Origin: a virus
Lineage: Duplodnaviria > Heunggongvirae > Uroviricota > Caudoviricetes
IMG/VR virus record: IMGVR_UViG_3300042894_008610
Strand: one strand, 5' to 3'
Length of the DNA stretch: 64,000 nucleotides
A program made the translations under genes and the position numbers. The notes beneath the pieces were generated by a model, which was given only the letters and a program-made list of their open reading frames with translations, searched no databases and was not told the DNA's origin. Shown here in pieces: positions 1 to 47,536 of the stretch. Position 1 is the first letter of the stretch; each line of letters starts with the position of its first letter.

Positions 1-953
1 AAATTAGGTGAGATTTTAATTTAAAAATCTCTTTGAAAGTATCATCAAAATGTTTTTCGTATATTATTTTTTCTGAATTATCAATTCTGATGGTTTTTAC
101 CTCATCCATAGGATACAAATTTTCAATATACCAATGGTTAGGTTTTACATTCAAGGTATGCACTTCGGAATTATTTATAATAACAATTACAGTTTCCTCT
201 TCAATTTTTTGTGAATTGTAGAAAAGTTTGATTTTGTTGTCTTTTTTATCATAAAAAAGAGTATAATGTAAATTTCTTTCGTAAAAATGTTCTCCCTTTT
301 TGAAAAAACCATTGAGTTCAGATTCTTTTCTAAACAAAACATTTGTGTGATTTTTGAACTCTGTTTTGGTAATATATTCCAAATTTACATTCTGTCCAAA
401 ATCTCTCATCCTTTTTTCAATCTCATCACGATTATAATCGGTGAACAATCGTGGTAATTTGTCAACCCTTACAGACTTTAAAGACCCAAACATAAACCCA
501 TCACTGTCACCAGTTGTTGTGTAAAGAATTGAGTCATAATTTTCTAATAACTCATTGTGTTGTTTTAAAATTTCTAAATCAAGGACCTCACAATCATACT
601 CAATGTGATGTATATTTTTATATCCAAAATTGATTGCAATTTGTGATGCGATTGAAAACATTCTGTAGATTGCAAACCCATAAAAGTTTTTTATGAAAAA
701 AATGGATTTTATGATTTTGTCACCAAAAGAAAAAAAGAAACCAGGAGGTAATAAATCTACGTCCTCAGAAGTATCATTCAAATAGTCGTAGAAATAAAAA
801 TTACATTTTTTTTGAATATGAAAAGGAATATGAGTGTGAGATAATAAGGCAATGTGATATCCACTTTTTGAAACAGAATCAATACACCTCTCAAGAGCTC
901 TTTCTTGTTCTTCCGATGGACAATGAGCCGTTATAAAAATCAAATCTTTCATT
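1..953 (-). CDS. hypothetical protein, 3'-partial (runs off the window start); N-term MKDLIFITAHCPSEEQERALERC...
   Basis: ATG at 953..951 on minus; stop-free translation by eye through to position 1; missing from the ORF track because it is incomplete. Confidence 0.4.
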
Positions 954-17437: not shown

Positions 17438-17725
17438 ATGGCCGACAGGAATTTTTATATGAGAAGAGTATTGACCAAAATTGTAAAAAATATGGTTAGT
17501 AAAAATCCTGCATTCAAAAATATTCGTTCAGTTGAAATACAATTCTTACTTAAATCTCCTGTTAGAAGCGCAATGTGTGATTGGGTTTATGGTCTTACTA
17601 TCAAGACATATAACGATGATGTTAACCAACCTCAAATAATTTCTCAAATAAAAGAAAGAATTGATTCTGTTACATCACAACTAACAAAAGACACTTTCTG
17701 TCTCACCGACTATTACTTCGAGTAG
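17438..17725 (+). CDS. hypothetical protein
   Basis: 95-aa plus-strand ORF; convergent 13-nt overlap with glf. Confidence 0.4.
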   Translation: MADRNFYMRRVLTKIVKNMVSKNPAFKNIRSVEIQFLLKSPVRSAMCDWVYGLTIKTYNDDVNQPQIISQIKERIDSVTSQLTKDTFCLTDYYFE

Positions 17726-18840
17726 TCGTATTTACGAAAAATCCCATCTACCGTATGTAACGCTTGAGCAACCACTTGGTGCATATCATAATAAGCATAG
17801 GTCCCAAGTCTACCCCCAAATATGTATTTAGATTCAGACTCTGTCAATGATTTATATTTTTCATAAATCTCAACATTTTTACCGTCTCTGATTGGGTAAT
17901 ATGGTTCGTTCTCACCAGTATACTCACAAGAGTATTCCTTACTGATATAAGTACCTTTTTGATTCTTAGGGTCAAACCATTTATGTTCTAATATTCGAGT
18001 ATACTTAGTATCAGAATCAGTAAAATTCATTACAGGGTTTCCTTGGAAGTTGTCAACTTCTAATTGGTAATTCTCCCATCTAAGACTACGATATTCCAAT
18101 CGACCAAATTCGTAATCGTAAAACTTATCAATTGGTCCTGTGTAAATTATCTTATCAGATAAAGACTCAAGGATATCTCTATTCTCAAAAAAATCAAATT
18201 CAGTCAGTACTTCAATACCTGATAGTAGTTTTTCAAAAATTTGGGTATAACCTCCGTCAGGAATTCCTTGGTACTTGTCATTGAAATAATTGTTATTCCA
18301 AGTAAATCTAACAGGTAATCTTTTAATAATGGATGGTGGTAGTTCAGAACATTTCTTATCCCATTGTTTCTCAGTATAACCTTTAATCAACTTTTCATAT
18401 ATGTCAGTCCCTACCATTGAAAGAGCTTGTTCTTCCAAATTAGTGATAGGTCCCTTATATTTTTGTTCATCAATCATATACTGTGCCTTTTCAGGTGTGT
18501 TAACACCCCACAGTTGATTGAATGTCCACATATTGAAAGGTAATGAGTAAATCTCACCCTTATAGTTAGCCAAAGGTGAATTAACAAACTGATTAAAAGT
18601 TGCAAATCTGTTTACGTAGTTCCAAACTCTTTCATCATTAGTATGGAATATGTGAGCACCATACTTGTGAACGTGTATACCGTCTATATTTTCAGTATAA
18701 CAGTTTCCACCGATATGATTTCTTTTTTCAACAACTAATACGTTGAATTTCTTACTTAGTTCGTGGGCGCAGATTGCTCCAAAGAGACCTGCCCCCACGA
18801 TTACAAAGTCATAATGTCTATAGGAAGTCAAAAACGACAC
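17713..18840 (-). CDS. glf: UDP-galactopyranose mutase
   Basis: N-terminal FAD Rossmann YDFVIVGAGLFGAICAHEL...VEKRNHIGGNCYTE and overall UGM-like length; apparent GTG/TTG start. Confidence 0.85.
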   Translation of the reverse strand: MSFLTSYRHYDFVIVGAGLFGAICAHELSKKFNVLVVEKRNHIGGNCYTENIDGIHVHKYGAHIFHTNDERVWNYVNRFATFNQFVNSPLANYKGEIYSLPFNMWTFNQLWGVNTPEKAQYMIDEQKYKGPITNLEEQALSMVGTDIYEKLIKGYTEKQWDKKCSELPPSIIKRLPVRFTWNNNYFNDKYQGIPDGGYTQIFEKLLSGIEVLTEFDFFENRDILESLSDKIIYTGPIDKFYDYEFGRLEYRSLRWENYQLEVDNFQGNPVMNFTDSDTKYTRILEHKWFDPKNQKGTYISKEYSCEYTGENEPYYPIRDGKNVEIYEKYKSLTESESKYIFGGRLGTYAYYDMHQVVAQALHTVDGIFRKYDYSK

Positions 18841-19975
18841 TGTCAGGAGATAATACAGGTTTATTAATCTTGTTCTCTAATCTTTCTTTGAACTCATACA
18901 AGAAGTTAGATGAATTAGTATAACATCTATCCTCAATCAAGAAACACAAATTAGGATATGGGTTTTCTCTACCTTCATTAATCATTTGTTCAACAACCTC
19001 AAGAGCTTCTTTGTTCCTTTGTCTTTTCTCATAAAAGAATGCCAAATACATCAAGTGTTCATTTCTTGTTGGAGAGAACGGTCCTGCAGATTTGTAGTGT
19101 TCTTCCGCTTTATCATACTCCCCTCTAAAGTTATATGCTTCACCCAAAAGTATAAATGTTAGATATGACATCTCATCTAATCTTGCAGGTTTACCAGTAT
19201 TAAACCAGTTGTGATTAAGTGCTAAAAACTTATTAAAGTAGAAAATCGCTCTACGAGCATATTCGTCTGAGTGGTCCTTTCCAAATGCAAGTTCATCAGG
19301 ATTTCCATAACAATCAGCATAACTCTTACCAACATACCAAAGATGATACATATCCTCATTGATGGTGTTTCCAACAACTTTGTCAATTTCTAATTCCAAA
19401 GCATCTCTCAAAAACTTTCTTGGTGCAAACCAAGTCTGACCATCATTTGTGATTAAGTGTCTAAATCCAAAAGGTAGAACCATTCTTTGGAAATTTTCAC
19501 CGACTTCAGGTAAGTGAATTGTTTCGTGTCTTTTATCGTGTTGAAAAAACCAAGGTCTTTTTGCATTCCATAACCAAGTTCTGTAATACTTTGTACCCAT
19601 TGCCTGAGCTGTAATGTTGAATGAATCAATTGAAGTGTCTTCCAATACAGTCCAATCAAAGTCCTCATCAACAATTAGTTGTTCATCAGCATCCATTCTC
19701 AGAATCCAATCACATCCGTGGTCAGCCTTCAAACATTCCTGTAAGGTATGGTCTCTATTCCATCCTGGATATTGCCATTCAATCTCATACAGGAATCCAG
19801 GAATCCCTTTTTCTTTGAAGTAGTTTCTTATAATGTCTTGTGTTCCGTCAGTAGACCCATTGTCCTGTATAACCCAATAATCAATATATTGGAAACAGGA
19901 GTCTAACATTCTTGTGATAGTTCTGGCCTCATTAGCCACCATCGCGTTTAAGCAAATTTTGGTTTTTTTATTCAT
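18818..19975 (-). CDS. glycosyltransferase (GT2-like N-terminal domain, TPR-like C-terminus)
   Basis: YWVIQDNGSTDGTQDII; C-terminal TPR-like EAYNFRGEYDKAEEHY. Confidence 0.55.
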   Translation of the reverse strand: MNKKTKICLNAMVANEARTITRMLDSCFQYIDYWVIQDNGSTDGTQDIIRNYFKEKGIPGFLYEIEWQYPGWNRDHTLQECLKADHGCDWILRMDADEQLIVDEDFDWTVLEDTSIDSFNITAQAMGTKYYRTWLWNAKRPWFFQHDKRHETIHLPEVGENFQRMVLPFGFRHLITNDGQTWFAPRKFLRDALELEIDKVVGNTINEDMYHLWYVGKSYADCYGNPDELAFGKDHSDEYARRAIFYFNKFLALNHNWFNTGKPARLDEMSYLTFILLGEAYNFRGEYDKAEEHYKSAGPFSPTRNEHLMYLAFFYEKRQRNKEALEVVEQMINEGRENPYPNLCFLIEDRCYTNSSNFLYEFKERLENKINKPVLSPDSVVFDFL

Positions 19976-21215
19976 AAATGTAATTCATTACTTGTTCTTG
20001 TTTATAGTATTTTTTGATTGGGACACTGTTTTGGAACTTTTGTGAGTGTTGTGTAATCTCATCCCAATTCCAATCAAAATAACCCATTTCTTCAATTCTG
20101 TCGTGTATTCTTTTATCATAGAAGTCCCTGATTAATCTGGCCCTACGATTAATATCTGTTGCATTATTATCAACTGTTGAGTTGTTATTGTTGTATTGTA
20201 GATATAACACCTTCTTTACGTGAATCATCTTGGTTTCTAAAAATGTACGAATAAGAATCTCCAAGTCATCAGCAACAGGTGTTAATTTATTGTGTCCTGA
20301 AATATTATGATAAACACTTCTCTCCCACATTCTAGCGTGGTTTGGCATTGTGATATTGAATCTAATTGTGAGTGGGTTTACATCAGGGTACCAATGAGCA
20401 AGTCTATCAACACCGTCAACATTTACCCAACTGTGTCCAGCATACCCAAAGTCAAAATAGTTATCGTGACGAGCATACCAATTACCAGTCCAATCGTGGT
20501 CATAAAACTTAGGTTCACCGTCCTCGTATATCTCTGAACAATCAGTATAAAGAAATCCCGCGTCAGGGTATTTTAATATTGCATCATTAGCGGTTTCAAG
20601 ACAAGTTGTAACCAAACAATCATCGTGGTCCAATTCAATCAACCAATCACCATCACCTAACATAGCTGCACGATGTTTAGCCAAACCAATATTACCACCC
20701 GATAATGGATAAATCCTGTGAGGTTTTACCCGATAGTCTTTCTCCGCAATTTCAGTTATCATCTCCCAAGTTTCAGGGTCAGGCGAATCATCAACCACAA
20801 CCCATTCCCAATTATCAAAGGTTTGGTTGTTTAAAGACTCATAAGTCCTATAAATCCTTTCTCCTGTTTTGTAGGTTGGTGTGAAAATTGTAAATCTTGG
20901 TCTAAAATATTCACAGTTTCTAAACACAGTCTGACAAACAATTACGTTCGCCAAAATTGCTTCATCAATCGGTTCATCATAGTGAATGTGAAATCTTTTC
21001 AAATGATAGTGTGGGATGTTTACTTCTTCACCAAAACTTATAATTAAGTCAGGTTTATATTTTGTATAATCACCAACGACATCGTTTGTATATGGTAGAT
21101 TATAAACAACAACATCATCAAACAGATGTTCTTCCCAGTATATTTGTGAGATTAAGGTTGTTTCACCTTCCGTACCTAATCCATACACTATTGCTGACGG
21201 TTTTTTTGTCTTCAT
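19968..21215 (-). CDS. family 2 glycosyltransferase
   Basis: FTIFTPTYKTGERIYRTYESLNNQTFDNWEWVVVDDSPD; DxD-like LDHDD. Confidence 0.7.
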   Translation of the reverse strand: MKTKKPSAIVYGLGTEGETTLISQIYWEEHLFDDVVVYNLPYTNDVVGDYTKYKPDLIISFGEEVNIPHYHLKRFHIHYDEPIDEAILANVIVCQTVFRNCEYFRPRFTIFTPTYKTGERIYRTYESLNNQTFDNWEWVVVDDSPDPETWEMITEIAEKDYRVKPHRIYPLSGGNIGLAKHRAAMLGDGDWLIELDHDDCLVTTCLETANDAILKYPDAGFLYTDCSEIYEDGEPKFYDHDWTGNWYARHDNYFDFGYAGHSWVNVDGVDRLAHWYPDVNPLTIRFNITMPNHARMWERSVYHNISGHNKLTPVADDLEILIRTFLETKMIHVKKVLYLQYNNNNSTVDNNATDINRRARLIRDFYDKRIHDRIEEMGYFDWNWDEITQHSQKFQNSVPIKKYYKQEQVMNYIYE

Positions 21216-23674: not shown

Positions 23675-23995
23675 TTACTTGGTAACCAAAGCTTCCACTT
23701 TGGATTTCATATGTTCTGACAATGATACCTCACCAACCGTGGGTGTAATCAATGAAGTCAAAACAATTGAATCAACCAAATATTTGTACGGAATGTGAAC
23801 CAAGAAGTCGGTACCATTGAAGAAATCCAAATCTCCTTTGAGTTCCAAACAACCGTGAACCATTTTCAAAAACAACTTAAACTGAATACCGTCAACAAAG
23901 GTTTCATTCAAGAGGGTCCCGAACTTCTCGTTCTCAATCCTAATATTGTATGTAAAATTGATTTTCATACCACAAATATAGAAATAACTTTTCAT
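23675..23995 (-). CDS. hypothetical protein
   Basis: the track ORF extends through terminator 24002-24034; the internal ATG at 23995 (or 23968) is more plausible. Confidence 0.4.
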   Translation of the reverse strand: MKSYFYICGMKINFTYNIRIENEKFGTLLNETFVDGIQFKLFLKMVHGCLELKGDLDFFNGTDFLVHIPYKYLVDSIVLTSLITPTVGEVSLSEHMKSKVEALVTK

Positions 23996-24001
23996 ATAAA
24001 C

Positions 24002-24034
24002 AAAAAAACCCGAAGATTTTTTTCTTCGGGTTCT
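24002..24034 (-). terminator. rho-independent terminator (ACCCGAAG-loop-CTTCGGGT followed by T8 in minus RNA)
   Basis: stem 24008-24015/24024-24031; closes the ORF-free GC-elevated segment and tRNA unit. Confidence 0.6.
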
Positions 24035-24039
24035 GGCAC

Positions 24040-24960
24040 TTAGGTTGAGAATACACCTTCGATTAAGAATCTTTAGGGACATTATTGTTTCTTCCCGTTT
24101 CCACTACCTTTTGAGTAGTAATTCTTAGTGACGGTTCCTTAGGGGTACCATTCCTTGAGTCGTGCGGTTACTCTCTTTGTACTTGTTACTCTCCGAGGTT
24201 GCCACCCCAGTGAATCCTTGCGGGATTAGAGAACTTTCTCAAGAATCATTTGGGTCTTGGGAACCCATAATGGCAATGAACATCTCATTACTATGTAGTC
24301 ACCTTTCGCCTACGACTGACAGACACTTTTCCTTCGTCTTTTAGTATTTGCATACTTCAAAATGCAAAGTTGTTGGTCTGTGGATGGTGAAAGTAGCGGT
24401 CTGCCAACCAGACAAGCCATCTTTTGAACGACTCGATACTGAACTACTCTCTGAGATATCCCTACCTCGATACTTCAAGAAATCTTCATAATTAAAATCT
24501 TGGTAGATTCTAACTAAGGTTACCAACAGCACCACCTGTACGATAACATGACTTTCGTCTTTAAGACACCTCTGATATTGAATCCCGTGATTGTAAAGTT
24601 GGATGACTTTACTTCTCACAACAATTCTACGAGTTATTCTTATTGTTCTTCCGAACTCAACTCAACGACCCACATCGCTGAGTCATCATTCCATTTTGTC
24701 TACAGTGTCACCCTCGACTACTCAGGAACAATGATATCCCGCTTGCCTACTCGAGCTCTAAGAACCGAAGTTCAAAGAACCGCAGTCTCCGTTAACCTTC
24801 GGAGACCACTTTATCCCACTTTCGTGGTTTATTTATTGACCATAGGCGGCCAATTATCTTATTTACTAACCTGTTGGTTAGAAGGATAATCAAATATGTA
24901 AAAGAACGTGTTTCGTTAATTGTTTCACAAAGTTAAGAAGATTATTTTAATCTGTCAAGC
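24040..24960 (-). ncRNA. candidate large structured non-coding RNA (ORF-free, GC-elevated ~0.9 kb, co-oriented with tRNA-Met, ends at a terminator); class unknown
   Basis: only short ORFs in shifting frames; GC visibly higher than flanks; local hairpins such as GTCTCCG-TTAACCTT-CGGAGAC at 24785-24806; no tmRNA or RNase P signatures recognised by eye. Confidence 0.3.
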
Positions 24961-24981
24961 ACTTTGTAAAAGTTTTTTTTG

Positions 24982-25055
24982 TTGCGGGAGTCGGACTCGA
25001 ACCGACGGCCTCAAGGTTATGAGCCTTGCGAGCTACCAACTGCTACCACCCCGCG
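24982..25055 (-). tRNA. trnM: tRNA-Met (anticodon CAU)
   Basis: minus-strand read CGCGGGGTGGTAGCAGTTGGTAGCTCGCAAGGCTCATAACCTTGAGGCCGTCGGTTCGAGTCCGACTCCCGCAAC: T-arm GTCGG/TTCGAGT/CCGAC, anticodon loop CTCATAA, acceptor CGCGGGG/TCCCGCA with a C1:A72 mismatch, no encoded CCA. Confidence 0.8.
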
Positions 25056-25285
25056 ATATATTTTAAAGAACGTGATTCGAAAAAAAATCCCAAAACTTAT
25101 ATCCTCTCGAACACTCATTTTGGGATTTGGGGTTTGAGGATTCTACTCCTCTTCTTCCGAGTGTCTCACAAACTTACGAACAAATTTTGGACTTGTCAAA
25201 TTGTTTATGAAACTTTTTTTGGGGGTATTATCTACCTTTCGGTAGAGTTTTATAAATATATGCTAAAATTGGAAAAAACCAAGTC

Positions 25286-25705
25286 TTACAGTATATTCAT
25301 TAACAATTTATTTAATTTTTCTCCTGTTTCAAGGTTTTTTACTTGTTTTTTGGTAAAATAACCACATTCGGTGTGTTCCTCACCGTCTTTGGCACTCTCC
25401 AAATCAGGTATAAGTTCCGTATCGCTATTGTATTCATATAGATACATTAGTCCCTTGAAGTGTTTACCATCACGCGTAAATCTTGGTAACATACCAGTGA
25501 ACTTTAAGTTATCAGGATTCAAATCTAAATCAGTTTCTTCTTTAAATTCTCTAACAGCTGCCACCCTTGTCTCTTCCCCCTCTTCAATTTTTCCCGCAGG
25601 AACAGACCACATACCAGGGAAACTACCCTTCTTATTTCTCTTACATAGTAAGCATTTGTCACCAACTTTGACTAGTACACCGACGTATCTTTTGTAATCA
25701 TTCAT
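25286..25705 (-). CDS. NUDIX hydrolase
   Basis: Nudix box GKIEEGEETRVAAVREFKEETDL. Confidence 0.8.
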   Translation of the reverse strand: MNDYKRYVGVLVKVGDKCLLCKRNKKGSFPGMWSVPAGKIEEGEETRVAAVREFKEETDLDLNPDNLKFTGMLPRFTRDGKHFKGLMYLYEYNSDTELIPDLESAKDGEEHTECGYFTKKQVKNLETGEKLNKLLMNIL

Positions 25706-31343: not shown

Positions 31344-32507
31344 TTAATCGTTATAAATTGAACCACTTTTATTTTCAGACTCTTCGAATTGATGTTGTTC
31401 CATAATATCTTTAAGTGGTGATTTTTGAGTATCAACTTTAGTATTCATATTATGAATAATCTTATCAAGAGTTAATGCAAAGTCCAGAGTTTCGGATATG
31501 ATACCAACAATTTTATATGGGTCACCATTTGATGCCGGTCTACGGTCTTCAACATAACCCTTCCATTCTTTTGATGTAGACAATGGAACTCTGATTGATG
31601 CACCTCGGTCAGCAACCCCCCAACTAAACTTGTCAATAGATTGGGTTTCGTGTTTACCAGTCAAACGAAGATTGTTATCAGAACCGTAATTGTTAATGTG
31701 TAACTGATGACGTGAATCAAAGGCGTTAAAGATGTTTTTGAAGTATTCATCACCACCTTCATTTCTCATCTTGTCATTTGAGAAGTTACAGTGTAATCCT
31801 GAACCATTCCAATCACCCATCACAGGTTTAGGGTGGAATTCAATCTTAAAACCATAGTCCTCAGACATTTGTTGTAAAATGTATCTCGACATCCACAAAT
31901 CATCACCGGCCTTTAATTTACCTTTGGAGAATACCTGGTACTCCCACTGACCCAATAAGACCTCGGCGTTTGTACCTGTAATTTCAATACCTGCCAAGAT
32001 ACAATTTTCCATATGAGTATCCACAAATTTTCTACCGTTAACTTGTCCGTTACCTACACCACAATAGTATTTTCCTTGTGGTTCAGGATATCCATTCTCA
32101 GGGAAACCCAAAGGTCTACCATCTTTCATAATGGTATACTCTTGTTCAAAACCAAACCAAAGGTCCTCTTCTTCTTCCCCAACAAGACTTCTTGTATTTG
32201 ATACGTGTGGAGTCCCATCGGGATTCATAACCTCACACAACACCAAGAAAGACCATAGACCACCTTCGTTAAGTGAGTTGTGATAAACTCTAACAGGTTT
32301 CAAAATACAATCAGAAAAATGTCCGTCAGCTTGTTGTGTTGATGAACCATCAAAACTCCACTCAGGGCAATCCTTCAGTGTTATAATATCCCCATATGGA
32401 ATATTCTGAAGACCAGTCTCTTCTTTTTCAATCACCTTAACCTTACTTCTAAGATTAGGTTCTGGCTGATACCCATCCAACCACACATATTCTAATTTAA
32501 CTTTCAT
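31344..32507 (-). CDS. glnA: glutamine synthetase, type II
   Basis: KVKLEYVWLDG beta-grasp start; PEWSFDGSSTQQA; FGFEQEYT; GTNAEVLLGQWEYQ; NWNGSGLHCNFS; SIRVP — collinear with eukaryote/bacterial GSII. Confidence 0.9.
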   Translation of the reverse strand: MKVKLEYVWLDGYQPEPNLRSKVKVIEKEETGLQNIPYGDIITLKDCPEWSFDGSSTQQADGHFSDCILKPVRVYHNSLNEGGLWSFLVLCEVMNPDGTPHVSNTRSLVGEEEEDLWFGFEQEYTIMKDGRPLGFPENGYPEPQGKYYCGVGNGQVNGRKFVDTHMENCILAGIEITGTNAEVLLGQWEYQVFSKGKLKAGDDLWMSRYILQQMSEDYGFKIEFHPKPVMGDWNGSGLHCNFSNDKMRNEGGDEYFKNIFNAFDSRHQLHINNYGSDNNLRLTGKHETQSIDKFSWGVADRGASIRVPLSTSKEWKGYVEDRRPASNGDPYKIVGIISETLDFALTLDKIIHNMNTKVDTQKSPLKDIMEQHQFEESENKSGSIYND

Positions 32508-34182: not shown

Positions 34183-35934
34183 TTAAAGTTTTATAATGTA
34201 ATAAGTCTCTCCTTGGACGGTCTCTTCGTGAACCGCCCCATCATTGTGTGACATCATATCATAACTCTCATTATCGATAACAGTATCTATAAATTTTTCC
34301 TTATCAATAAAATCATCTAATTCTAATCCGTAATCCTCCGCGTATCCAGTTGGGTTGTATCTAACTTCATCCAACTTACTTTCAATCATATTTTCAATAT
34401 CATCGTCTGAAAAATCACCTTCAGGATTTTCTTCTATTTCTTCTTTTTGTTCTTCTAATTCAGTAATATAGTCTTCCAATTGACTAATTCTATCGTCAAT
34501 TTTATCAACCTTATCTTCATCATCAATCCCATATTTAATTTTTTCAAGTCTTTCTATCTCCCTTTGTGTTTGTAAAACTCTAGCGTCAATAATTTTAATA
34601 GTTTCAACTTGTTTTGAATCTAATTGTCTTTGGGAATCGTCTAAATAAGCATCAGGCTCTTGGTAAACGTCCTGATTGAAATAATCATCAAACCAATTAA
34701 GTATTTCATCCTCATTAACCGCATTATCCTTAACCCAACTAGCAAACCCATCATACCCTTCAGTATCAACCATATCCTCAACATACTCTCTCAACGCATC
34801 ATCCATCTCCGTCTCGGTACCCACAGTATATTCATCACCATATAGTTCAGTTGCAAATTTTTGCATTCCATAGTGTTGGGATTCCAAAGGTATTAAATCG
34901 TAAACGTCTTTATATTCTTTAAACTCATCTAACTCTTCTTCTAATTGTTCAATCTGAGATAATAAATCATACCTTACAGTATCAGAATTTTCATATTCTT
35001 CTTGAAGTTCACTTATTCTTTCTAAAATATCCGTTCTTCTTTCTTCATCATCTTCACTCATAGATTCGATTTCTCCCTCTGAAACCAAATAATCAAAAAG
35101 TGCGTGTGCCATCAATCCTATAGTTGGGCAATCAGGACCTAACTCCCACTCTTTATCAATTCTTCGTTCATTTGCTTCTTCCATAGACAATCTTTTTTCT
35201 TGAGCAATCCTTTTTTCTTGTTCTTTTTTATCAATATCAGTCTTTGTTATGTAGTAATCTAAATTACTCATTTTGTCTTCATATTTTCTCTCAAGAAAAC
35301 TAATAATAAACGAATACACAACATTAAAGTTTGGTATAGAATTTAAAACATCCTCCATACCAACTCTCACATTTTTAACATAAAAATAAGGTTTGGAGTT
35401 TCTAACAAAAACAATTGTTATTTTTTCCTCAGGATTATTTTTATTAATTAAATAGACAATTTTTTTGTCCCCATATTCCCCATATGTTATGTTAAACGAG
35501 TTTTCACTACTAACGTCGACACATCCTACAGAATCTTTACCATAATAACAAGCGCCTGATTGGGTAGATGGTGAAACAATCAATAATTTATCATCTTCAA
35601 ATATTATGGACTTGTTATTGGTAGTGGTCATATTGTTTAGATATTGACCGGTAAAACTATCTATTTGGTTTTTTAAATCTTCATATGAACCAAACTTATT
35701 AATGTCAGTTGTTTGTAAAACACCTTTAAGTCTTTCAAATTTCTGTGTCAAATCAATAATATTAATTAAGTTAATATTATCCCCTTCTTCAGGGAATTTG
35801 TTTGCAACCCAATCCCAATACTCAGGTTGGATGTATTTTACTATTGACGATAAGAGTGGTAAACTCAGTTTGTCCTTATATTTTGTTGTAAAATCAGACT
35901 TACTTTGTTCTTTTAATAACTTACGGATTGACAT
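34183..35934 (-). CDS. large hypothetical protein with a highly acidic C-terminal half
   Basis: 583 aa; D/E-rich repeats. Confidence 0.55.
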   Translation of the reverse strand: MSIRKLLKEQSKSDFTTKYKDKLSLPLLSSIVKYIQPEYWDWVANKFPEEGDNINLINIIDLTQKFERLKGVLQTTDINKFGSYEDLKNQIDSFTGQYLNNMTTTNNKSIIFEDDKLLIVSPSTQSGACYYGKDSVGCVDVSSENSFNITYGEYGDKKIVYLINKNNPEEKITIVFVRNSKPYFYVKNVRVGMEDVLNSIPNFNVVYSFIISFLERKYEDKMSNLDYYITKTDIDKKEQEKRIAQEKRLSMEEANERRIDKEWELGPDCPTIGLMAHALFDYLVSEGEIESMSEDDEERRTDILERISELQEEYENSDTVRYDLLSQIEQLEEELDEFKEYKDVYDLIPLESQHYGMQKFATELYGDEYTVGTETEMDDALREYVEDMVDTEGYDGFASWVKDNAVNEDEILNWFDDYFNQDVYQEPDAYLDDSQRQLDSKQVETIKIIDARVLQTQREIERLEKIKYGIDDEDKVDKIDDRISQLEDYITELEEQKEEIEENPEGDFSDDDIENMIESKLDEVRYNPTGYAEDYGLELDDFIDKEKFIDTVIDNESYDMMSHNDGAVHEETVQGETYYIIKL

Positions 35935-36235: not shown

Positions 36236-37258
36236 GTGATGACAGGGAAATTACAAAGATTAATCGACGATGTTAATAATGGTAAATTTGATATTATCAA
36301 AGATTTTTTTGGTGATATGGAAACTTTTTTGGACTATCTTGGTAAAAAAGGTTTGATACACGAATTAGACCTTATTAACAACGAAGAAGAATTCGAATAT
36401 GAAGTTAACAAAATAGCCCTCGCAATTAAAGAACATAATCCCGAAAAATTTAGAGAATATGTTTTATCTTCATTAAGTGATGTTACTTATGAAAATGGTG
36501 AATACTATGTGACTTTGAATGATAAAAGTAGACTCGCGTATCTTTTTTGTGATGATAGAAGAAATGGTATGTCTCAATCAACAATATCAGAGATACTAGA
36601 TGGTGAATGGGATTTTGATTTTTGGGATACTACCGATAATGTTTATAGGGATGTTATTCAAGAACTAAATAAGGATAATCTTACTTATTTATCAAAAAAA
36701 ATAAGTAACGAATTATCTGACGTTAAGGTAGAACCTGAAACAGAATTGTTAGAAGAAATTGCCGAGGAACAAGGTCATCCTGAATATGTAACCTTAACCC
36801 CCGAGTTGATTCACGACAGAATATTCAATGATGAGGATTCAACAGAAAGTATTTTGAATGAAACCGAAAACATTAAATCAGATTTACACTCATTACATAA
36901 CAGAGCATATGCAAATGCTTATGAAGATGAGGTGTATAGTGGTATAATGGATGAACTTGAAACATTTTTTGATATGCGCCATTCTGATTGGATAACAGTT
37001 CCAAGTAGTGTAAACCCAAACAAATCTTATACCTATTTCAAAGTTAAAATAAATAATTTTGATTCAGAGATTTCCGATTACCTTAATAACGCGAAGAATC
37101 ATAATGAACCATTAAGTAATTATGGTGACTATCTTAGTATTTTGAGTGAAAATATTAGTTATGGTAGTGCCAATTGTTTGGTATATTACACGCCTGATTA
37201 TGCGGATTGGCCAAAAACAAAAGAAAATATTAACGAACTTTTTGGTGACTATTTTTAA
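36236..37258 (+). CDS. hypothetical acidic protein
   Basis: 340 aa; converges on tail-fibre gene 1. Confidence 0.55.
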
Positions 37259-40200
37259 ATAATCCCCTTTAGTTTAGCTTTATCCAAAACTTTTTTAGCT
37301 CTCTCTTCAAGAGATGTTATTCTAACCTCTTGTTCTTTTAACGCTTCAATGTTAACGGCAATCATTTCTTTATAATTCATTGTTAACACTTTACCTTCAG
37401 TATAAATAACTTCAGGAACATAAGGCAAAACTTCTTGAGCAATAAATCCAATAGCTTTTTTGTCATTAGAACTATATTCTTTACCTCTCCATTTAAATGT
37501 GACACCTCTAATACTTAATATCTTATTTAGAGCATCACCGATAGGTTTAACATCTTTTTTCAGTCTTTCATCTGAAGGACCTGTTGGTCCTTGTGGACCT
37601 TGAGCTCCTTGTGCTCCGAATGTTGAACTAGCACCTCCTTGAGCCCCTGGTGCTCCTTGTGCCCCTGTTGGACCTGGTGTTGCAGAACCTTGAGCACCTG
37701 TTGGTCCTTTAAGACCTGTAGGTCCTTGTGCACCGACGGCTCCCTCAAAACCTTGTGAACCTTGAGCTCCTTGAGCCCCTGTTGCACCTTGTGCACCTTG
37801 TGGTCCATTAGGAGACGTTGGCCCTTGAGCCCCTTGAGCTCCTTGAGCTCCAATAGCACCTGAATTTCCTTGAGCGCCTTGAGCACCTTGAGCGCCGGCT
37901 GTACCTGAACCTTGAGCACCTTGAGGTCCTGTTGGTCCTGTTGCACCTTGAGGTCCTGTTGGTCCTGTTGCACCTTGAGCACCTTGAAATCCTTGACCCC
38001 CTGTAGGTCCTACGGCTCCTTGTGAACCTTGAGCCCCTTGAGGTCCTGTTGGTCCTGTTGCACCTTGAGCTCCTTGAGCTCCAACAGGTCCTTGAGCACC
38101 TGTGGCTCCTTGGAATCCCTGCTGACCATTAGGTCCTATTCCACCTACGTCCCCTTGAGCACCTTGCGCTCCTTGGAATCCTTGTCCTCCTGTTGCTCCT
38201 TGAGACCCTTGAGCACCTGTTCCTCCTTGAGCTCCCTGAAAACCTTGTCCTCCTTGCGCCCCTTGTGGACCTTGAGCTCCTGTGGCACCTTGAGCACCTT
38301 GAGCTCCCTGCCCACCTTGCGCTCCTTGTGGACCTATTGCTCCTTGGAAACCTTGTGCTCCTTGAAAACCTTGTCCTCCTTGAGCCCCTTGAGTTCCTGT
38401 TGCTCCTTGAGCACCTTGAGCCCCTTGTGCTCCCTGTCCTCCTGTTGCGCCTTGAGCTCCTTGTGCTCCTTGTCCTCCTGTTGCTCCTTGGACTCCTTGT
38501 CCACCTGTTGCTCCTTGCGCACCTTGGTTACCAACAGCACCTTGAGCTCCTTGGAAACCTTGAGCCCCCTGACCTCCTTGTGCACCTTGTACTCCAACAG
38601 CACCTTGAGCCCCTTGTGCTCCTTGGAAACCTTGTCCTCCTTGAGCACCTTGAGTACCTGATATACCTACAGAACCTTGAGAACCTTGAGCCCCTTGTCC
38701 TCCTTGAGCACCTTGAGTTCCTGATACACCTTGAGCTCCTTGAGCCCCTTGGAAACCTTGACCTCCTTGAGCACCTTGAGTTCCTGTTGTACCTTGAGCC
38801 CCTTGAGCTCCTTGAAAACCTTGTCCTCCTTGAGCTCCTTGGGTTCCTGTTGCTCCTTGAGCTCCTTGAGCTCCTTGAGCTCCTTGGAAACCTTGAGCAC
38901 CTTGGGTTCCTGTTGCACCTTGAGCCCCTTGAGCTCCTTGGAAACCTTGACCTCCTTGAGCCCCTTGGGTTCCTGTCGCTCCTTGTGCACCTTGAGCTCC
39001 TTGTGCTCCCTGTCCACCCTGAGCACCCTGAGTTGCTGTCGCTCCTTGCGCTCCTTGAGCTCCTTGAGCTCCTTGACCACCTTGAGCACCTTGGTTACCA
39101 ACTGCCCCTTGTGAACCTTGAGCCCCTTGTGCTCCTTGTCCACCTTGGGCTCCCTGATTACCTTTAGCCCCTTGAGCTCCTTGCGCCCCTTGGGCTCCTT
39201 GACCACCTTGAGCACCTTGGTTACCAACTGCCCCTTGTGAACCTTGAGCCCCTTGCGCTCCTTGTCCACCTTGCGCTCCTTGTCCACCTTGAGCACCTTG
39301 AGCCCCTTGTGCTCCTTGAGCACCTTGTCCTCCTTGAGCACCTTGTGTTCCCGTTGCACCTTGAGCACCTTGAGCTCCTTGGAAACCTTGTCCACCTTGA
39401 GCACCCTGTGTTCCTGTTGCTCCTTGAGCCCCTTGTGCTCCTTGGGCTCCTTGTCCACCTTGAGCACCCTGTGTTCCTGTTGCACCTTGAGCACCTTGTG
39501 CTCCTTGGGCTCCTTGTCCACCTTGGGCACCTTGGTTACCCTTTCCACCTTGAGCACCTTGTGCTCCTTGGGCTCCTTGTCCACCTTGAGCACCCTGTGT
39601 TCCTGTTGCACCTTGAGCACCTTGTGCTCCTTGGGCTCCTTGTCCACCTTGGGCACCTTGGTTACCCTTTCCACCTTGAGCACCTTGTGCTCCTTGGGCC
39701 CCTTGTCCACCTTGAGCACCCTGATTACCTGTCGCACCCTGAGCCCCTTGAGCTCCTTGAGCTCCCTGTCCACCTTGTGCACCTTGGTTACCAACCGCTC
39801 CTTGTGAACCTTGAGCTCCTTGAGCTCCTTGTCCTCCTTGGGCGCCTTGGTTACCAACCGCTCCTTGTGAACCTTGAGCTCCTTGAGCACCTTGTCCACC
39901 TTGAGCACCTTGATTACCTTTTCCACCTTGAGCGCCTTGAGCTCCTTGAGCTCCTTGTCCTCCTTGGGCACCTTGGTTACCAACCGCTCCTTGTGAACCT
40001 TGAGCTCCTTGAGCTCCTTGTCCACCTTGAGCGCCTTGATTACCTTTTCCACCTTGGGCGCCTTGAGCACCTTGAGCACCTTGTCCTCCTTGAGCCCCTT
40101 GGTTACCTGTTGCCCCTTGAGCTCCTTGTGCGCCTTGTGAACCTTGCCCTCCTGTTGCTCCTTGGGAACCTTGAGCTCCTTGGGCTCCTTGACTACCAAC

Positions 40201-40539
40201 CGCTCCTTGAGCACCTTGGTTACCAGTATTACCCTGAGCACCTTGTCCTCCTTGGGCACCTTGATTACCTTGAGCGCCTTGTGGTCCAGCATTTACATTA
40301 CCTTTCCATCCGGTAGAGTCTATTATTAATCCGTAATTGTTTGTAACTGTATTAGCACTTAAATTTGTATTTTGTACTTGGAATATAGGTGCTGTCTTGG
40401 CAATTTTTAGATATGTTGTTGTTTGATTTACAACATAATTCAATGTAGAACTAGAATATACCAAATCACTTCGAGTATTCCCCGAATCATAAAATTGTAT
40501 TGTTATACTTGCAGGTACTATTATTATATTCTCAGCCAC
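37255..40539 (-). CDS. collagen-like (Gly-X-Y) tail fibre protein with C-terminal S74 intramolecular chaperone (auto-processing) domain
   Basis: ~290 GXY triplets ([11 protein letters not shown]...); C-terminus SDERLKKDV...FKW...IGFIAQEV matches the endosialidase-chaperone/S74 motif; GTG start (MAENIII). Confidence 0.85.
37620..40290 (-). repeat. collagen triplet-coding repeat array (9-18 nt period, many near-perfect copies)
   Basis: read directly; generates spurious Leu-rich and Lys-rich ORFs in other frames. Confidence 0.8.
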
Positions 40540-43500
40540 GTAATTTTTCTTCTAATTCAGTTAATGATGTTTTAAGGACATCCATTCTTTTTTGATTTTC
40601 TTTTACAAAAGATACTCCAAGAGTAACAAGTAGTTCATACTGTAAAGATTTATAACCAAACTTATCTTCCCAAACAATTTCAGGAAAATATTTTTCAACT
40701 TGTTGGGCGATAAAACCTATACTTCGTTTTTTAAGTAAATACTTTTCATTGTCTTTATACAATGAAAGTTGTGGTATATTTTCAACCCAATCAAAAGATA
40801 CACCATTCATATTAACAACATCAATAGCTCTATCAAATTTCTTGATGTTTTCTTTCAATCTTCTATCTGAAGGTGGCCCTTGAGGTCCTTGAGCACCTTG
40901 TGCTCCTTGTGGTCCCGTTTTACCAGCATTACCTTGAGCACCTTGAGCACCTTGTGGTCCTGTAACACTAGCACCTTGAGCTCCTTGAGAACCAGTACCT
41001 CCTGCAGGTCCTGTTGCACCTTGAGCTCCTTGGACTCCTTGTGGACCTGTCCCACCTGTAACAGCTCCTTGAGCGCCTTGTGCTCCTTGTGCCCCTGCAG
41101 CTCCTTTTCCTCCTTGAGCACCTTGTGCTCCTGTGGAACCCTGAGTTCCGGCCTTTCCTGTTGCACCTGTAGCACCTTTTGGTCCCGATGGTCCTTGAGC
41201 TCCTGTTGGTCCTTGAGGTCCTCTTGACCCTTGTACACCTTGTCCTCCTGTCTGACCTGCAGCACCTTGAGCCCCCTGTGTCGCACCCGCAGGTCCTTTT
41301 GTTCCTCCCGCACCTTGAGCACCTGTAGGACCTGGACCTCCTGTAGGACCTGTCGCTCCTTGAGACCCTTGAGAACCTTGAGCTCCAGCGGGTCCTTGAG
41401 CACCTTGTGTAACACTCGGATTCCCTTGTGGTCCTTGTGAACCTGTTGCTCCTGTGGCACCCTGAGCTCCTTGGGTACCTCCTTGAGCACCTGTGGCTCC
41501 TTGTGGGCCTTGAGGTCCTTTTGCTCCTTGAGCTCCTTGAGGACCTCCTTGAGCCCCTATCGGACCTTGGGCTCCTTGAGCTCCTGTAGCACCTGTTGCA
41601 CCTTGAGTACCTCCTGTAGCACCTTGGAATCCCTGAGGTCCTGTAGCACCTGTAGCACCCTGAGCCCCTTGAGGTCCTCCTTGTGCACCAACAGGTCCTT
41701 GAGCACCTGTAGCACCTGTAGCACCTGGAGCCCCTTGCGGAGTACCTTGTGGTCCTTGAGCACCTTGAGCTCCTGTTGGTCCTGTAGAGCCTGTTGCTCC
41801 TTGGACCGCTCCTTGAGCACCTTGATTACCAACAGCACCTGTTTGTCCAGTCGCACCTTGTGCCCCTTGAGCACCTTGAGGTCCTCCTGGATTTCCCTGA
41901 GCACCTTGGGCTCCTTGTCCACCTTGAGCACCCTGTGCACCTGTTGGTCCTCCCTGTGCACCTGTTGGTCCTTGAGCACCTTGGGCTCCTTGAGCACCTT
42001 GTCCTCCTTGTACACCTCCTTGAGAACCTGTTGGTCCTTGAGCTCCTGTCGCACCTGTGGCACCTGTCGCTCCTTGCGTTCCTCCTTGAGCACCTGTTGG
42101 TCCTTGAGCCCCTGTTGCACCTGTGGCTCCTGTAGCCCCTTGAGGTCCTCCTTGTGCACCAACAGGTCCTTGAGCTCCTGTAGCTCCTGTGGCTCCCGTC
42201 GCACCCTGAACTCCACCTTGAGCACCTGTTGGTCCTTGAGCTCCTGTAGCTCCTGTGGCCCCTGTTGCACCCTGAACTCCACCTTGAGCACCTGTAGGTC
42301 CTTGTGCACCTGTTGTTCCATTAGCACCCGTTGCCCCCTGAACTCCACCTTGAGCACCTGTTGGCCCTTGTGCACCTGTTGTTCCATTAGCACCTTGAGC
42401 CCCTTGAGGTCCTCCTTGTGCACCTGTTGGTCCTTGGGCACCTGTTGTACCTTGAGCACCTTGAGCTCCTTGAGAAGCTCCTTGTGCTCCTTGTGAACCA
42501 ACGGCTCCTTGAGCACCTTGTGCTCCCTGATTTCCCTGAACTCCACCTTGTGCTCCTGTAGGTCCTTGGGCACCTGTTGTACCTTGAGCACCTTGAGCCC
42601 CTTGAGAAGCCCCTTGAGCTCCTTGTGAACCAACGGCTCCTTGTGCACCCTGTGCTCCCTGATTTCCCTGAACTCCACCTTGTGCTCCTGTAGGTCCTTG
42701 TGCACCTGTTGTACCAGCGGCACCTGTTGCCCCCTGAACTCCACCTTGAGCACCTGTAGGTCCTTGTGCTCCTGTGGCACCTGTCGCACCTGTTGCCCCT
42801 TGGACACCTCCTTGAGCTCCCGTACTACCTTGAGCTCCTTGAGCACCTGTCGTACCCTGAGCACCCTGAGAAGCACCTTGTGCACCTTGTGAACCAACGG
42901 CTCCTTGAGCACCTTGTGCTCCCTGATTTCCTTGGACACCACCTTGAGCTCCCGTAGGTCCTTGGGCACCTGTCGTACCTTGAGCACCTTGAGCACCTTG
43001 TGATGCACCTTGAGCTCCTTGTGAACCAACGGCTCCTTGAGCACCTTGTGCTCCCTGATTTCCTTGGACACCACCTTGAGCACCTGTTGTCCCTTGAGCA
43101 CCTTGAGCTCCTGTCGCCCCTGTCGCTCCTTGCGTTCCTCCTTGAGCGCCCGTACTACCTTGGGCACCTTGGGCACCTGTGGCTCCTGTCGCTCCTTGTG
43201 TTCCTCCTTGAGCACCTGTACTACCTTGAGCACCTTGTGCCCCTGTCGTACCTTGAGCACCTTGTGAACCTCCTTGAGCACCTTGTGAACCAACGGCTCC
43301 CTGAGCACCTTGGGCTCCTTGTCCTCCTTGTGTCCCACCTTGAGCACCTGTACTACCTTGAGCACCTTGAGCACCTGTCGTACCTTGAGCACCTTGTGAA
43401 CCTCCTTGAGCTCCTTGTGAACCAACGGCTCCTTGAGCACCTTGTGCTCCCTGATTTCCTTGGACACCACCTTGAGCACCTGCAATACCTTGAGCACCTT

Positions 43501-43954
43501 GTGCCCCTGTTGTTCCTTGCGCCCCTTGAGACGCTCCTTGAGCACCTTGTGCTCCTACTGCTCCTTGAGCACCAGTACTACCTTGTGCTCCTTGAGCTCC
43601 TGTACTACCACCCCCACCTTGAGCTCCCGTTGTTCCTTGTGCCCCAACATTTCCTTGAGCTCCTTGAGCACCTTTAATAGTTGTTTGTGGTCCAATCCAT
43701 ACACCGGCATTATTAATCATATTTTGACCACCAACCCATAAACCTGATGGTGAACTTGATATTGTAACACCTGTAGTTGTTATGTCATTATTACTGAAAA
43801 CTACTAATGATGGACTTGTTGTTGCAGAAAATTTGACATCACCCGGTGCAACCATATTAATTTGGATACTATCCGCAGCAGACGCCCCCTCGTATACTAT
43901 ATGAGGCGATGAGTTTCCTGTAGTTCCACTTGGATATATTATTACGTCTGCCAT
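40532..43954 (-). CDS. collagen-like tail fibre protein with C-terminal S74 intramolecular chaperone domain (paralog 2)
   Basis: GXY array; C-terminus [11 protein letters not shown]...FDW...[16 protein letters not shown]. Confidence 0.85.
40850..43650 (-). repeat. collagen triplet-coding repeat array
   Basis: read directly. Confidence 0.8.
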
Positions 43955-43957
43955 ATA

Positions 43958-46900
43958 TTAATTTCTTTCAACCTTTTCTTCTAAATTTGTTAATAGAGAA
44001 TCCAAGTCATCAATAAATACTTGTTGCTCTTTTATGGCTTCTACTAAATAAGCGTTAAGTGAGGTATAGTTTAAACTATAATAACCGCCACCCCTTAATT
44101 CAATTATATCTGGTATTACACTTCTAACTTCTTGTGCAATAAAACCAAACGAGTGTAGTTTACCATCTCGTTTCATTGCCTCATAGTTGGGGTCTAATTC
44201 GTTCCAATCAAATTCAACAGGATTTAATTGTAAAACACTTTCTAACGAGTTTTCAATAGTAGTAATTTCTTGTTTTAAACTAATATCTGAAGGACAAGTA
44301 TTAGGAACACCAATAATTAAACAACCTCCTGTGTCTAGGTCGTAATAAAGTGATGATAAGTCATACCATACGGGAGCAGGTAAAGGAGTTACACAACTAA
44401 GATTTGCACAGTCAGTCGCATTTTCAAACACAGATGTGTTGTTAGTCCAAGTAGTAATATCGTCTGGCGAGTATATGTCCCCATAAAATCCGCGGTTTAA
44501 TGAACAAGCACTACCCGGGTCACCCGCATAATAACCTGAATATTGAAAACAAGATGCTGATGGTGGTCCTGCCGGTCCTGGCGCTCCAGGAGCACCCTGA
44601 GCACCTTGTGGTCCCGTATCACCTTGAGCTCCCGTAGCACCTGTTAGTCCGTCGGCACCTGCAGGTCCTGGTGCTCCTTGAGCACCTTGTGTTAACCCTT
44701 GTGCACCTTGTGGTCCTTGAGCGCCTTGTGCACCTTGTGGTCCTTTTGCACCTGTAGGTCCTGGTGCTCCTTGTGCACCTAATGGACCGGCACCTCTAAG
44801 TTCCCCTATTCCCCCTTGAGCCCCCTGAGCACCTGATGGTACAATTGGTGTAGGTCCTTGAGCACCTTGTGCACCTTGTCCTCCACCTGCTCCTTGAGCT
44901 CCTTGGAATCCAAGAGGTCCTTGAGCACCTTGAGTAGCACCTGTTGGTCCTTGAGCCCCTGTAGCACCTTGTGGTCCAGGAAGTCCAGCAATTCCTTGTG
45001 TTCCAACATTTCCTTGAGCACCTGTAGGTCCGGGAGAACCTTGAGCACCTGTTGCACCGATATTTCCAATAGGACCAGGACCTGTTCCTTGAGCTCCTTG
45101 TGGTCCTTGAACACCAGGAAATCCTGTGTTTCCTTGTGCACCTGTGGCACCTGTTGCACCTGTTGGTCCAACATCTCCTTGTGAACCTTGAAATCCAAAA
45201 GTACCGGTACCACCACCAGCACCTGTATTTCCAACATCACCTTGTGCACCTGAAAAACCTGTGGCACCTTGAGCTCCTTGAGAACCTGTAGGCCCAACCG
45301 GACCTGTTGCTCCACCCGCTCCTTGAGAACCTTGAGCTCCTGTAGCACCAGTATTTCCAACATTACCTTGTGAACCTTGAGCTCCTTGAGCCCCTTGTGG
45401 TCCTCCTCCTCCCACAGGACCCGCAAAACCTGGAAATCCTGTAGAACCTTGAGAACCTTGAGCTCCTTGAGCCCCTTGTGGTCCAACGGCCCCTTGAGAA
45501 CCCTGAGCTCCTTGAGCTCCTTGAGCACCTATTGTACCTGAATTACCTGTTGGCCCAAAGACTCCTACCGTTCCTTGAGCTCCTTGTGCTCCTTGTGGTC
45601 CTCCTGAACCTTGTGGACCTCGAGCCCCTTGTGAACCCTGAGCACCTTGTGCTCCTTGTGCACCCACATTACCTGTAGGTCCAACGGCTCCTTGTGAACC
45701 CTGAGCACCTTGTGCTCCTTGTGCACCTTGGTTACCTGTAGGTCCAACGGCTCCTTGTGAACCCTGAGCTCCTTGGGCTCCTTGCGCACCTTGGTTACCT
45801 GTAGGTCCAACGGCTCCTTGTGAACCTTGAGCTCCTTGTGCTCCTTGTGGTCCTCCTGAACCTTGCGGTCCAACGGCTCCTTGTGAACCTTGTGCTCCTT
45901 GTGCTCCTTGTGGTCCTCCTGAACCTTGCGGTCCAACGGCTCCTTGTGAACCCTGAGCACCTTGTGCTCCTTGTGCACCCACATTACCTGTAGGTCCAAC
46001 GGCTCCTTGTGAACCCTGAGCACCTTGTGCTCCTTGTGCACCTTGGTTACCTGTAGGTCCAACGGCTCCTTGTGAACCTGTATTACCTTGAGCTCCTTGG
46101 TTACCGGTATTTCCTTGGGCTCCTGTATGTCCTGTTGAACCTTGTGCTCCTTGAGCTCCTGTTGCACCTCCATTACCTGTTGGTCCAACCGCTCCTTGGA
46201 AACCTGTGTTACCTTGTGCTCCTTGATTACCTGTGTTTCCTTGTGCACCTGTATGTCCTGTTGAGCCCTGAGCACCTTGTGCACCTGTTGCCCCACCATT
46301 ACCTGTAGGCCCTACATTACCTTGTGAACCTTGAGCCCCTTGTGCCCCTTGAGCCCCTTGAGCCCCTTGTGGTCCTACATTACCTTGTGAACCTTGTGCT
46401 CCTTGTGCTCCTTGTGGTCCTGTTGAACCTGTTGGTCCGACATTACCCTGAGCTCCCTGATTACCTTGAGCACCTGTTGGCCCCACGTTTCCTTGTGCAC
46501 CTGTGTGTCCTGTTGAACCCTGAGCACCTTGTGCTCCTGTAGCTCCCGCATTACCTGTTGGTCCTACGTTACCCTGAGAACCTTGATTTCCTTGTGCACC
46601 TGTATTACCAGTATTACCTTGAGCACCTGTATGTCCTGTTGAACCCTGAGCGCCTTGTGCTCCTGTCGCACCTCCGTTACCTGTTGGTCCGACATTACCC
46701 TGAGCGCCCTGATTACCTTGTGAACCTTGTGACCCTGTTGCACCTGTTGGTCCGACATTACCTTGTGCTCCCTGATTACCTTGTGAACCTTGTGACCCTG
46801 TCGCTCCTGTTGGTCCGACATTACCCTGAGCACCTTGATTACCTTGAGAACCTTGAGCTCCCACATTACCTTGTGCACCAGGATGTCCTGTTGAACCCTG

Positions 46901-47536
46901 AGCTCCTTGAGCACCTGTCGCACCTCCGTTACCTGTTGGTCCGACATTACCCTGAGCACCTTGATTACCTTGAGAACCTTGAGCTCCCACATTACCTTGT
47001 GCGCCAGGATGTCCTGTTGAACCCTGAGCTCCTTGTGCACCTGTCGCTCCTCCGTTACCTGTTGGTCCGACATTACCCTGAGCGCCCTGATTACCCTGAG
47101 CACCTGTTGGTCCCACGTTTCCTTGTGCACCAGGATGTCCTTGAGAACCTTGAGCATTTGCTGAACCTTGAGCTCCTTGATTACCCTTTCCACCTTGTGA
47201 ACCTTGTGAACCCTGAGCACCCGTATTTCCAATGGCTCCTTGAGCTCCTTGATTACCTTGGAATCCTGTTATATTTGTTCCAGGTCCTAACCAAGCACCT
47301 GTACCATTTAATACTTGAATTCCTCCAATAGTTAGATTATTAATGATATTAATATCATCATACGCTTGGATACCACCCGATGACATTAATAATGTAGAAC
47401 CCCACTTTATAGAAGTACCAGCACCATAAGGTCTGACCTCTAACCTCAAAGTTCCCGTATTTTCAAAATCAATATAGGGAATCCTTCCGGGATTCGGGAC
47501 TAAATTACCAGGTACAATTGTTATATTTTTTGCCAT
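43958..47536 (-). CDS. collagen-like tail fibre protein with C-terminal S74 intramolecular chaperone domain (paralog 3)
   Basis: GXY array; C-terminal Cys-rich knob then SDISLKQEI...FDW...FGFIAQEV. Confidence 0.85.
44580..47265 (-). repeat. collagen triplet-coding repeat array
   Basis: read directly. Confidence 0.8.

Follow-up and report, generated by a model that had tools for sequence, protein, structure and literature searches.

The GOLLD family of large RNAs was described in 2009, and a cryo-EM structure followed in 2025. GOLLD RNAs are encoded by phages, lie near tRNAs, exceed 800 nt, and are composed of a conserved 3′ region and a variable, less conserved 5′ region (PMC12286853). Among the closest known systems to the locus analyzed here is GOLLD env-38 (JCVI_SCAF_1096627009515/1239-410; PDB 9MEE), an 833-nt RNA (5′ region, 1-420; 3′ region, 421-833) that was found downstream of a Met-tRNA and that, as resolved by cryo-EM, forms in vitro a closed homo-14-mer of D7 symmetry, in which the 5′ domains make up the caps, the 3′ domains make up the rings, and ten inter-chain bridges (B1 to B10) connect the molecules (PMC12286853). 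Encapsulation of tRNAs, ribosomes, or other cargo has been proposed as the role of such cages (PMC12286853), and the expression of a GOLLD copy in a Lactobacillus prophage rises during phage lysis, according to work as cited in the same paper. ROOL, a large phage noncoding RNA found near tRNA islands, is likewise an RNA-only cage, an 8-mer nanocage (PMC12286853).

Here we analyzed a 64,000-nucleotide stretch of tailed-phage DNA (IMG/VR record IMGVR_UViG_3300042894_008610; Caudoviricetes), referred to as the window. A first-pass annotation of this DNA had proposed that a large structured noncoding RNA of about 920 bp, unknown and possibly novel in class, is co-transcribed with a phage tRNA-Met gene. 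The best explanation of the data, to which we assign a probability of about 0.97, is a canonical full-length GOLLD RNA of an uncultured, probably freshwater tailed phage, for which we infer a promoter of its own, a terminator, and assembly into a cage.

Identity and boundaries of the RNA

The whole window was scanned against Rfam at the gathering thresholds, as the first-pass annotation had suggested for the segment, and two matches were obtained, one to tRNA and the other to GOLLD (RF02032). The GOLLD match (24451..24042, minus strand) scored 307.5 bits with an E value of 4.3e-87, about twice the gathering score of 150, and cmscan placed it, untruncated, on model positions 1-416 of 416. ROOL, tmRNA, RNase P, group I/II introns, and HEARO gave no match at the gathering score in the window, and no Rfam family beyond GOLLD and tRNA appeared at an E value of ≤1 in 23900..25300; ARAGORN did not find a tmRNA in the window either. 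With ROOL the element has in common the large size, the phage context near tRNAs, and the proposed cage; sequence and fold are unrelated, and ROOL matched neither the window at the gathering score nor the locus at an E value of ≤1.

The Rfam model represents the 3′ half only. To the sequence of env-38, which was taken from Supplementary Table 4 of PMC12286853 and comprises 816 nt rather than 833 nt in the PDF text, the segment 24852..24042 aligned over nucleotides 4..816 with 72% identity in 779 ungapped columns. Because env-38 aligns end to end, the element is an 811-nt full-length GOLLD RNA, and its 5′ 400 nt or so are the GOLLD 5′ domain. The features of the locus are as follows.

24005..24034, minus strand: intrinsic terminator, a 12-pair hairpin and then a T-run, 7 nt past the last GOLLD model position
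24042..24852, minus strand: full-length GOLLD RNA core, 811 nt, from the end-to-end alignment with env-38
24042..24451, minus strand: GOLLD 3′ domain ("ring"), the Rfam RF02032 match
24452..24852, minus strand: GOLLD 5′ domain (putative "cap" of the cage), outside the Rfam model, from homology and covariation
24853..24927, minus strand: leader from the promoter-like box to the GOLLD core, read directly from the sequence
24881..24866, minus strand: leader hairpin CUAACC-AACA-GGUUAG, variable among relatives
24909..24895, minus strand: leader box ACGTTCTTTTACATA, conserved among relatives
24928..24958, minus strand: promoter-like box TTGACA-N17-TAACTTTG-TGAAACA between tRNA and GOLLD, of putative function
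24981..25055, minus strand: tRNA-Met (CAT), initiator-like, with a C1·A72 mismatch and A73 (ARAGORN; Rfam tRNA, 37 bits)
25169..25199, minus strand: promoter-like box TTGACA-N17-TAAGTTTG-TGAGACA upstream of the tRNA

The element belongs to the GOLLD family, has the two-domain architecture of that family, sits next to a tRNA gene, and lies in a phage genome. It shares with env-38 the length class (811 versus 833 nt), the cap and ring domains, and the position downstream of a Met-tRNA. It differs from env-38 in a shorter helix-15 insert, where env-38 has an extra GGGGAAACCCC hairpin, and in its origin from a freshwater-type phage rather than a marine scaffold. Compared with RF02032, with which it shares the full-model match, the phage context, and the tRNA neighborhood, nothing of substance differs, the 5′ half being recognized via env-type homology.

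Several details of the first-pass annotation could be adjusted on this basis. The tRNA-Met, which is the sole tRNA in the window, was placed on the correct strand and starts one base earlier than had been given (24981, not 24982); the minus-strand terminator put at 24002..24034 is present and measures 24034..24005; and the extent of about 920 bp gives way to the 811 nt of 24852..24042, separated from the tRNA by 128 nt that hold the promoter-like box and the leader. The core is indeed richer in GC than its immediate flanks (42.3% over 24042..24852 versus 34.5 to 34.8%, with 36.4% for the whole window), a value that is unexceptional, as 13.6% of all 811-nt segments in the 64 kb are equally or more GC-rich.

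A listed 135-amino-acid (aa) ORF (23675..24082, minus strand), called in this long form in public annotations as well, would take in the terminator and the final 41 nt of GOLLD. Translation more probably begins at the ATG at 23998, past the terminator, which gives a 107-aa product without a PHROG match.

Distribution among phage genomes

When the locus was used as a blastn query against 50,697 phage records, the only matches besides the tRNA were to the 5′ domain, in LR745206 and LR756502, and no annotated GOLLD was among them. Both of these uncultured, unannotated genomes of about 640 kb carry an Rfam GOLLD 3′ domain directly downstream of the 5′ domain, so that both domains are present in full length and in the same order as in the window, and in LR745206 a tRNA-Met likewise lies directly upstream. 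Unlike the window RNA, these two RNAs are situated inside a tRNA array without a promoter box or terminator of their own, and their helix-18 region has an insertion of about 40 nt. In the loci extracted from them (L001 from LR745206, 1901..3624; L002 from LR756502, 2921..3410), tRNAs abut both ends of GOLLD with no dedicated terminator, and the flanking tRNAs include genes that ARAGORN reports as "tRNA-???" with two-base "anticodons."

Further relatives were collected from IMG/VR. A scan with a 15-mer was unspecific (111 fetched loci were devoid of the element), while a loop-tolerant 22-column pattern worked: at least 120 loci matched it, and nearly every one has the element. Among the matches listed, 98 loci carry both domains in full length, measuring 788 to 846 nt (median, 805), and in these the 5′- and 3′-domain matches are a median of 1 nt apart. 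The tRNA and GOLLD locus itself (1,061 nt) recurs with 100% identity in contigs of JGI 3300001282, which comes from a lake, NCBI GCA_043536905.1, and ENA ERZ27271754, in which gene callers have left the locus, about 1.2 kb, blank.

These relatives bear on the suggestion that the RNA represents a novel large structured class unrelated to known families. Since the 5′ 400 nt lie outside every Rfam model, a scan of that part alone would yield nothing and could give such an impression; the 3′ half, however, is a full-model GOLLD match, and the 5′ half is homologous to the env-38 5′ domain and invariably occurs with the GOLLD 3′ domain in relatives. We therefore consider a new class to have next to no probability. 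The locus is a canonical member of the known GOLLD family.

Covariation of the 5′ domain and coding potential

The 5′ domain was evaluated in an alignment of 44 sequences with <90% pairwise identity, among them the window and env-38, with the homologs drawn from the matches listed. RNAalifold predicted 19 helices with 102 pairs in all, of which 81 showed compensatory double changes. Standard pairs occupied 96.4% of the cells, compared with 37 to 41% when the 3′ partners were slid by 1 to 3 columns; the slid controls also had fewer pairs changed on both sides (26 to 43 versus 81) and a much lower covariation score (0.08 to 0.12 versus 0.626), and none of 500 column shuffles reached the observed values. 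The window sequence itself forms 100 of the 102 pairs, the other two being mismatched. Covariation in homologs, which the first-pass annotation had put forward as a check, is thus strong in this domain. Both hairpins it had cited are real, and each is a conserved, covarying helix of the RNA: CCAC-GAAA-GUGG constitutes helix 2 (24827..24816), and GUCUCC/GGAGAC, from GTCTCCG...CGGAGAC, is part of helix 3 (24809..24801 with 24790..24782). Together with the GOLLD match and the tRNA-Met 128 nt upstream, the covariation bears out the original proposal of a large structured noncoding RNA beside a phage tRNA gene.

The same data address the possibility that only the GOLLD 3′ domain (about 410 nt) is present and that the upstream 400 nt or so serve as an unrelated spacer or form a long trailer of the tRNA. 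Although Rfam models only 24042..24451, and the 5′ region is described as the less conserved one (PMC12286853), the 5′ part is conserved and covarying across the 44 nonredundant sequences, it is contiguous with the 3′ domain (the median gap of 1 nt given above), and its match to the env-38 cap domain extends to the bridge motifs. We judge a lone 3′ domain to be very improbable, and the full-length RNA is retained.

Could the segment encode protein instead? The first-pass annotation had reported no ORF above about 110 codons; the longest measure 113 aa (24548..24889, plus strand) and 92 aa (24341..24619, minus strand), and its description of short ORFs switching frame and strand holds, as the ORFs between the tRNA and the terminator are scattered over frames and strands. 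If the locus were the remnant of a protein-coding gene or coded for a small protein, these 92- and 113-codon ORFs would be meaningful. In 85 distinct full-length homologs among the matches listed, however, the sense 92-aa ORF is intact in one and the antisense 113-aa ORF is stop-free in five. Variability is equal at the three codon phases (0.230, 0.227, and 0.228), the longest stop-free stretches are essentially no longer than in shuffled sequences (median, 88 versus 79 aa), and the substitutions compensate base pairing instead. A conserved coding frame in homologs, which the first-pass annotation had named as evidence that would speak against an RNA, was looked for across the 85 homologs, and neither such a frame nor a 3-nt periodicity was found. 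A coding origin can hardly be entertained. Both halves of the GOLLD RNA fold with covariation support, and the element has no coding potential.

Conservation of motifs for the env-38 nanocage contacts

To compare the RNA with the env-38 cage, the bridges given in Supplementary Table 2 of PMC12286853 were mapped by motif context, as the env-38 sequence taken from the PDF text is short of about 17 letters and some re-anchored offsets are ambiguous. The window carries the motifs of bridges B1 to B8 and B10, each where the family conserves it, as listed below.

B1: 24822..24819, minus strand, GAAA tetraloop of helix 2 (the B1 donor in env-38), invariant in the 44 sequences; its receptor helix is also present in the window
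B2: GGGUGAC loop, present in the window
B3: 24652..24649, minus strand, GGAA tetraloop
B4: AUCC with GGGAU, present in the window
B5: 24535..24530 and 24505..24500, minus strand, loops GUGGUG and UACCAA of a kissing-loop bridge, nearly invariant family-wide
B6 and B10: two CAAAAG loops, present in the window
B7: J13/15 strand AAGGAAAAG (within 24337..24322) and loop L20 UCCCAAG (within 24265..24253), minus strand
B8: CGCAA loop, present in the window

The facing columns of B7 covary, with G-C in 38 sequences, C-G in 34, A-U in 11, and 2 exceptions, and the adjacent pair is G-C in 79 and U-A in 6; at these two pairs env-38 reads A-U and G-C, and the window reads G-C at both. The window also loses one B4 kissing pair, as G410-C257 of env-38 would be G·A. 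For B9, the comparison covered the L21b loop, which in the window reads UGGGGUGG-CAACC and is common to six other homologs.

Because the bridge motifs are conserved and the 72%-identical env-38 forms a 14-mer, we infer that the window RNA also forms a cage. The 5′ part of the RNA would form the cap domain and the 3′ part the ring domain, with 14 copies assembling into a closed D7 nanocage via tetraloop/A-minor and kissing-loop contacts.

Candidate promoters and transcription of the locus

Two copies of a promoter-like box are found on the minus strand, one upstream of the tRNA (25199..25169) and the other between the tRNA and GOLLD (24958..24928). The upstream box is kept as TTTG-N19-TAnnTTTG in close and distant relatives while its flanks diverge, and the second copy is conserved in relatives of the window's clade (L125, L137, and L225) and absent in the huge-phage clade (L001, L182, and L206), where GOLLD follows the tRNA directly without an intervening promoter box. 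In Bacteroides, TAnnTTTG is the consensus of the −7 promoter element (PMC4747536). In the window, the extended box occurred 22 times, versus 13.6 ± 3.4 expected, and none of 100 shuffles gave as high a count, while the bare TAnnTTTG was weakly enriched (103 versus 84 ± 11). TAnnTTTG was located ≤70 nt upstream of 10 of the 69 ORFs, whereas two controls gave 3 and 5. The presence and conservation of the extended box, along with this modest motif enrichment, point to a probable host among the Bacteroidota.

Since a conserved promoter-like box separates the tRNA from the RNA, GOLLD probably has its own promoter in the window's clade. Transcription would then start at the Bacteroidota-type box (24958..24928) and end at the terminator (24034..24005). 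No terminator was found between the tRNA and GOLLD, so that read-through from the putative tRNA promoter at 25199..25169 may also occur, and co-transcription of GOLLD with the tRNA is possible, albeit not required. A stricter version of the co-transcription that the first-pass annotation had proposed would make GOLLD the 3′ part of one tRNA-GOLLD primary transcript without a promoter of its own. The shared strand, the 128-nt spacing, and the uninterrupted interval between the two genes fit such a single transcript, as does the huge-phage clade, in which no box separates them; in the window's clade, however, the second box copy lies between the genes and has stayed conserved amid diverging sequence. 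A single obligatory transcript is accordingly the less favored alternative, albeit one with a real chance of being correct, and a dedicated promoter is preferred.

Two further elements were observed around the tRNA. Both genes share a box, ACGTTCTTTnAnATA, which occurs on the minus strand directly before the tRNA 5′ end (25059..25073) and again some 45 nt ahead of the GOLLD core (24895..24909). Close as well as distant relatives keep the box, which was seen in the leaders of L001, L125, L182, and L206; it is a candidate signal for the processing of both the tRNA and the GOLLD precursor RNAs. In addition, a structured element of about 85 nt (25080..25165, minus strand) lies between the upstream promoter-like box and the tRNA. 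It consists of a hairpin, GAGGA-GUAGAA-UCCUC, and then a long terminator-like hairpin, AAAUCCCAAAA…UUUUGGGAUUU plus U8, and folds at −32.8 kcal/mol (z = −4.9). L125, L137, and L225 retain this element with compensatory changes; it has no Rfam match, and the huge phages carry an odd 88-nt tRNA-like gene in its place. A small RNA, an attenuator, and a tRNA relic are all conceivable identities for the element.

Linkage to initiator-like tRNA-Met

Among the matches listed, 44 of the 98 full-length relatives have a tRNA within 1.5 kb. A same-strand tRNA lies ≤300 nt upstream in 18 of 89 (11 of them Met) and ≤300 nt downstream in 16 of 89 (8 of them Met), again among the matches listed, and the upstream spacing ranges from 77 to 212 nt in the relatives listed, with the 128 nt of the window falling inside this range. 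The density of tRNAs was 108 per 250 kb beside GOLLD versus 1 per 984 kb in GOLLD-free viral loci, a rough excess of about 400-fold, since some loci are redundant. The C1·A72 mismatch and the A73 discriminator seen in the window's tRNA are hallmarks of bacterial initiator tRNA. A 1-72 mismatch was found in 27 of the 37 CAT tRNAs within 1.5 kb of GOLLD among the matches listed; for comparison, the GOLLD-free background contained a single tRNA.

Given this tRNA linkage, our best guess is that the cage would have a translation- or tRNA-related role during infection. A more specific reading is that GOLLD and the phage initiator tRNA make up one functional module, co-regulated and co-processed, with the cage storing, protecting, or delivering initiator tRNA or acting on initiating ribosomes. 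It is prompted by the mostly initiator-like character of the neighboring Met-tRNAs and by the promoter-like box and the leader box ACGTTCTTTnAnATA that the two genes share in the window's clade, and we hold it to be a long shot. If it were true, the action of the cage would fall during the takeover of host translation.

Phage context and implications

A NUDIX hydrolase gene, which together with the tail-fibre genes described next supplies the phage context, is located just upstream of the tRNA-Met, and DUF3310 is also encoded in the window. Three tandem collagen-like tail-fibre genes (37255..47536, minus strand), encoding proteins of about 1,100 to 1,190 aa, gave very strong matches to PHROG tail fibres. 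These genes are GC-rich and contain many spurious overlapping ORFs on both strands. Most of the neighboring ORFs had no match in PHROGs and Pfam, and a 583-aa ORF (34183..35934) had no tblastn match in the 50,697 phage records.

On the minus strand, 17713..21215 and 31344..32507 encode a UDP-galactopyranose mutase (Pfam GLF, 1.9e-75), two family-2 glycosyltransferases, and a glutamine-synthetase-like protein. This cargo suggests that the phage modifies cell-surface glycans.

For annotation, these results mean that the segment should be labeled as a GOLLD RNA and not flagged as a new class. The wide occurrence of the env-38-type 5′ domain in viral contigs and its strong covariation are confirmatory. 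What the locus adds are mildly new leads only, namely, the dedicated Bacteroidota-type promoter that GOLLD probably has here, the shared leader box as a candidate processing signal, and the predominance of initiator-like Met-tRNAs beside this GOLLD subfamily. For the family, a further small, confirmatory point is that the motifs of the cage bridges are kept in this freshwater-type phage with its probable Bacteroidota host.
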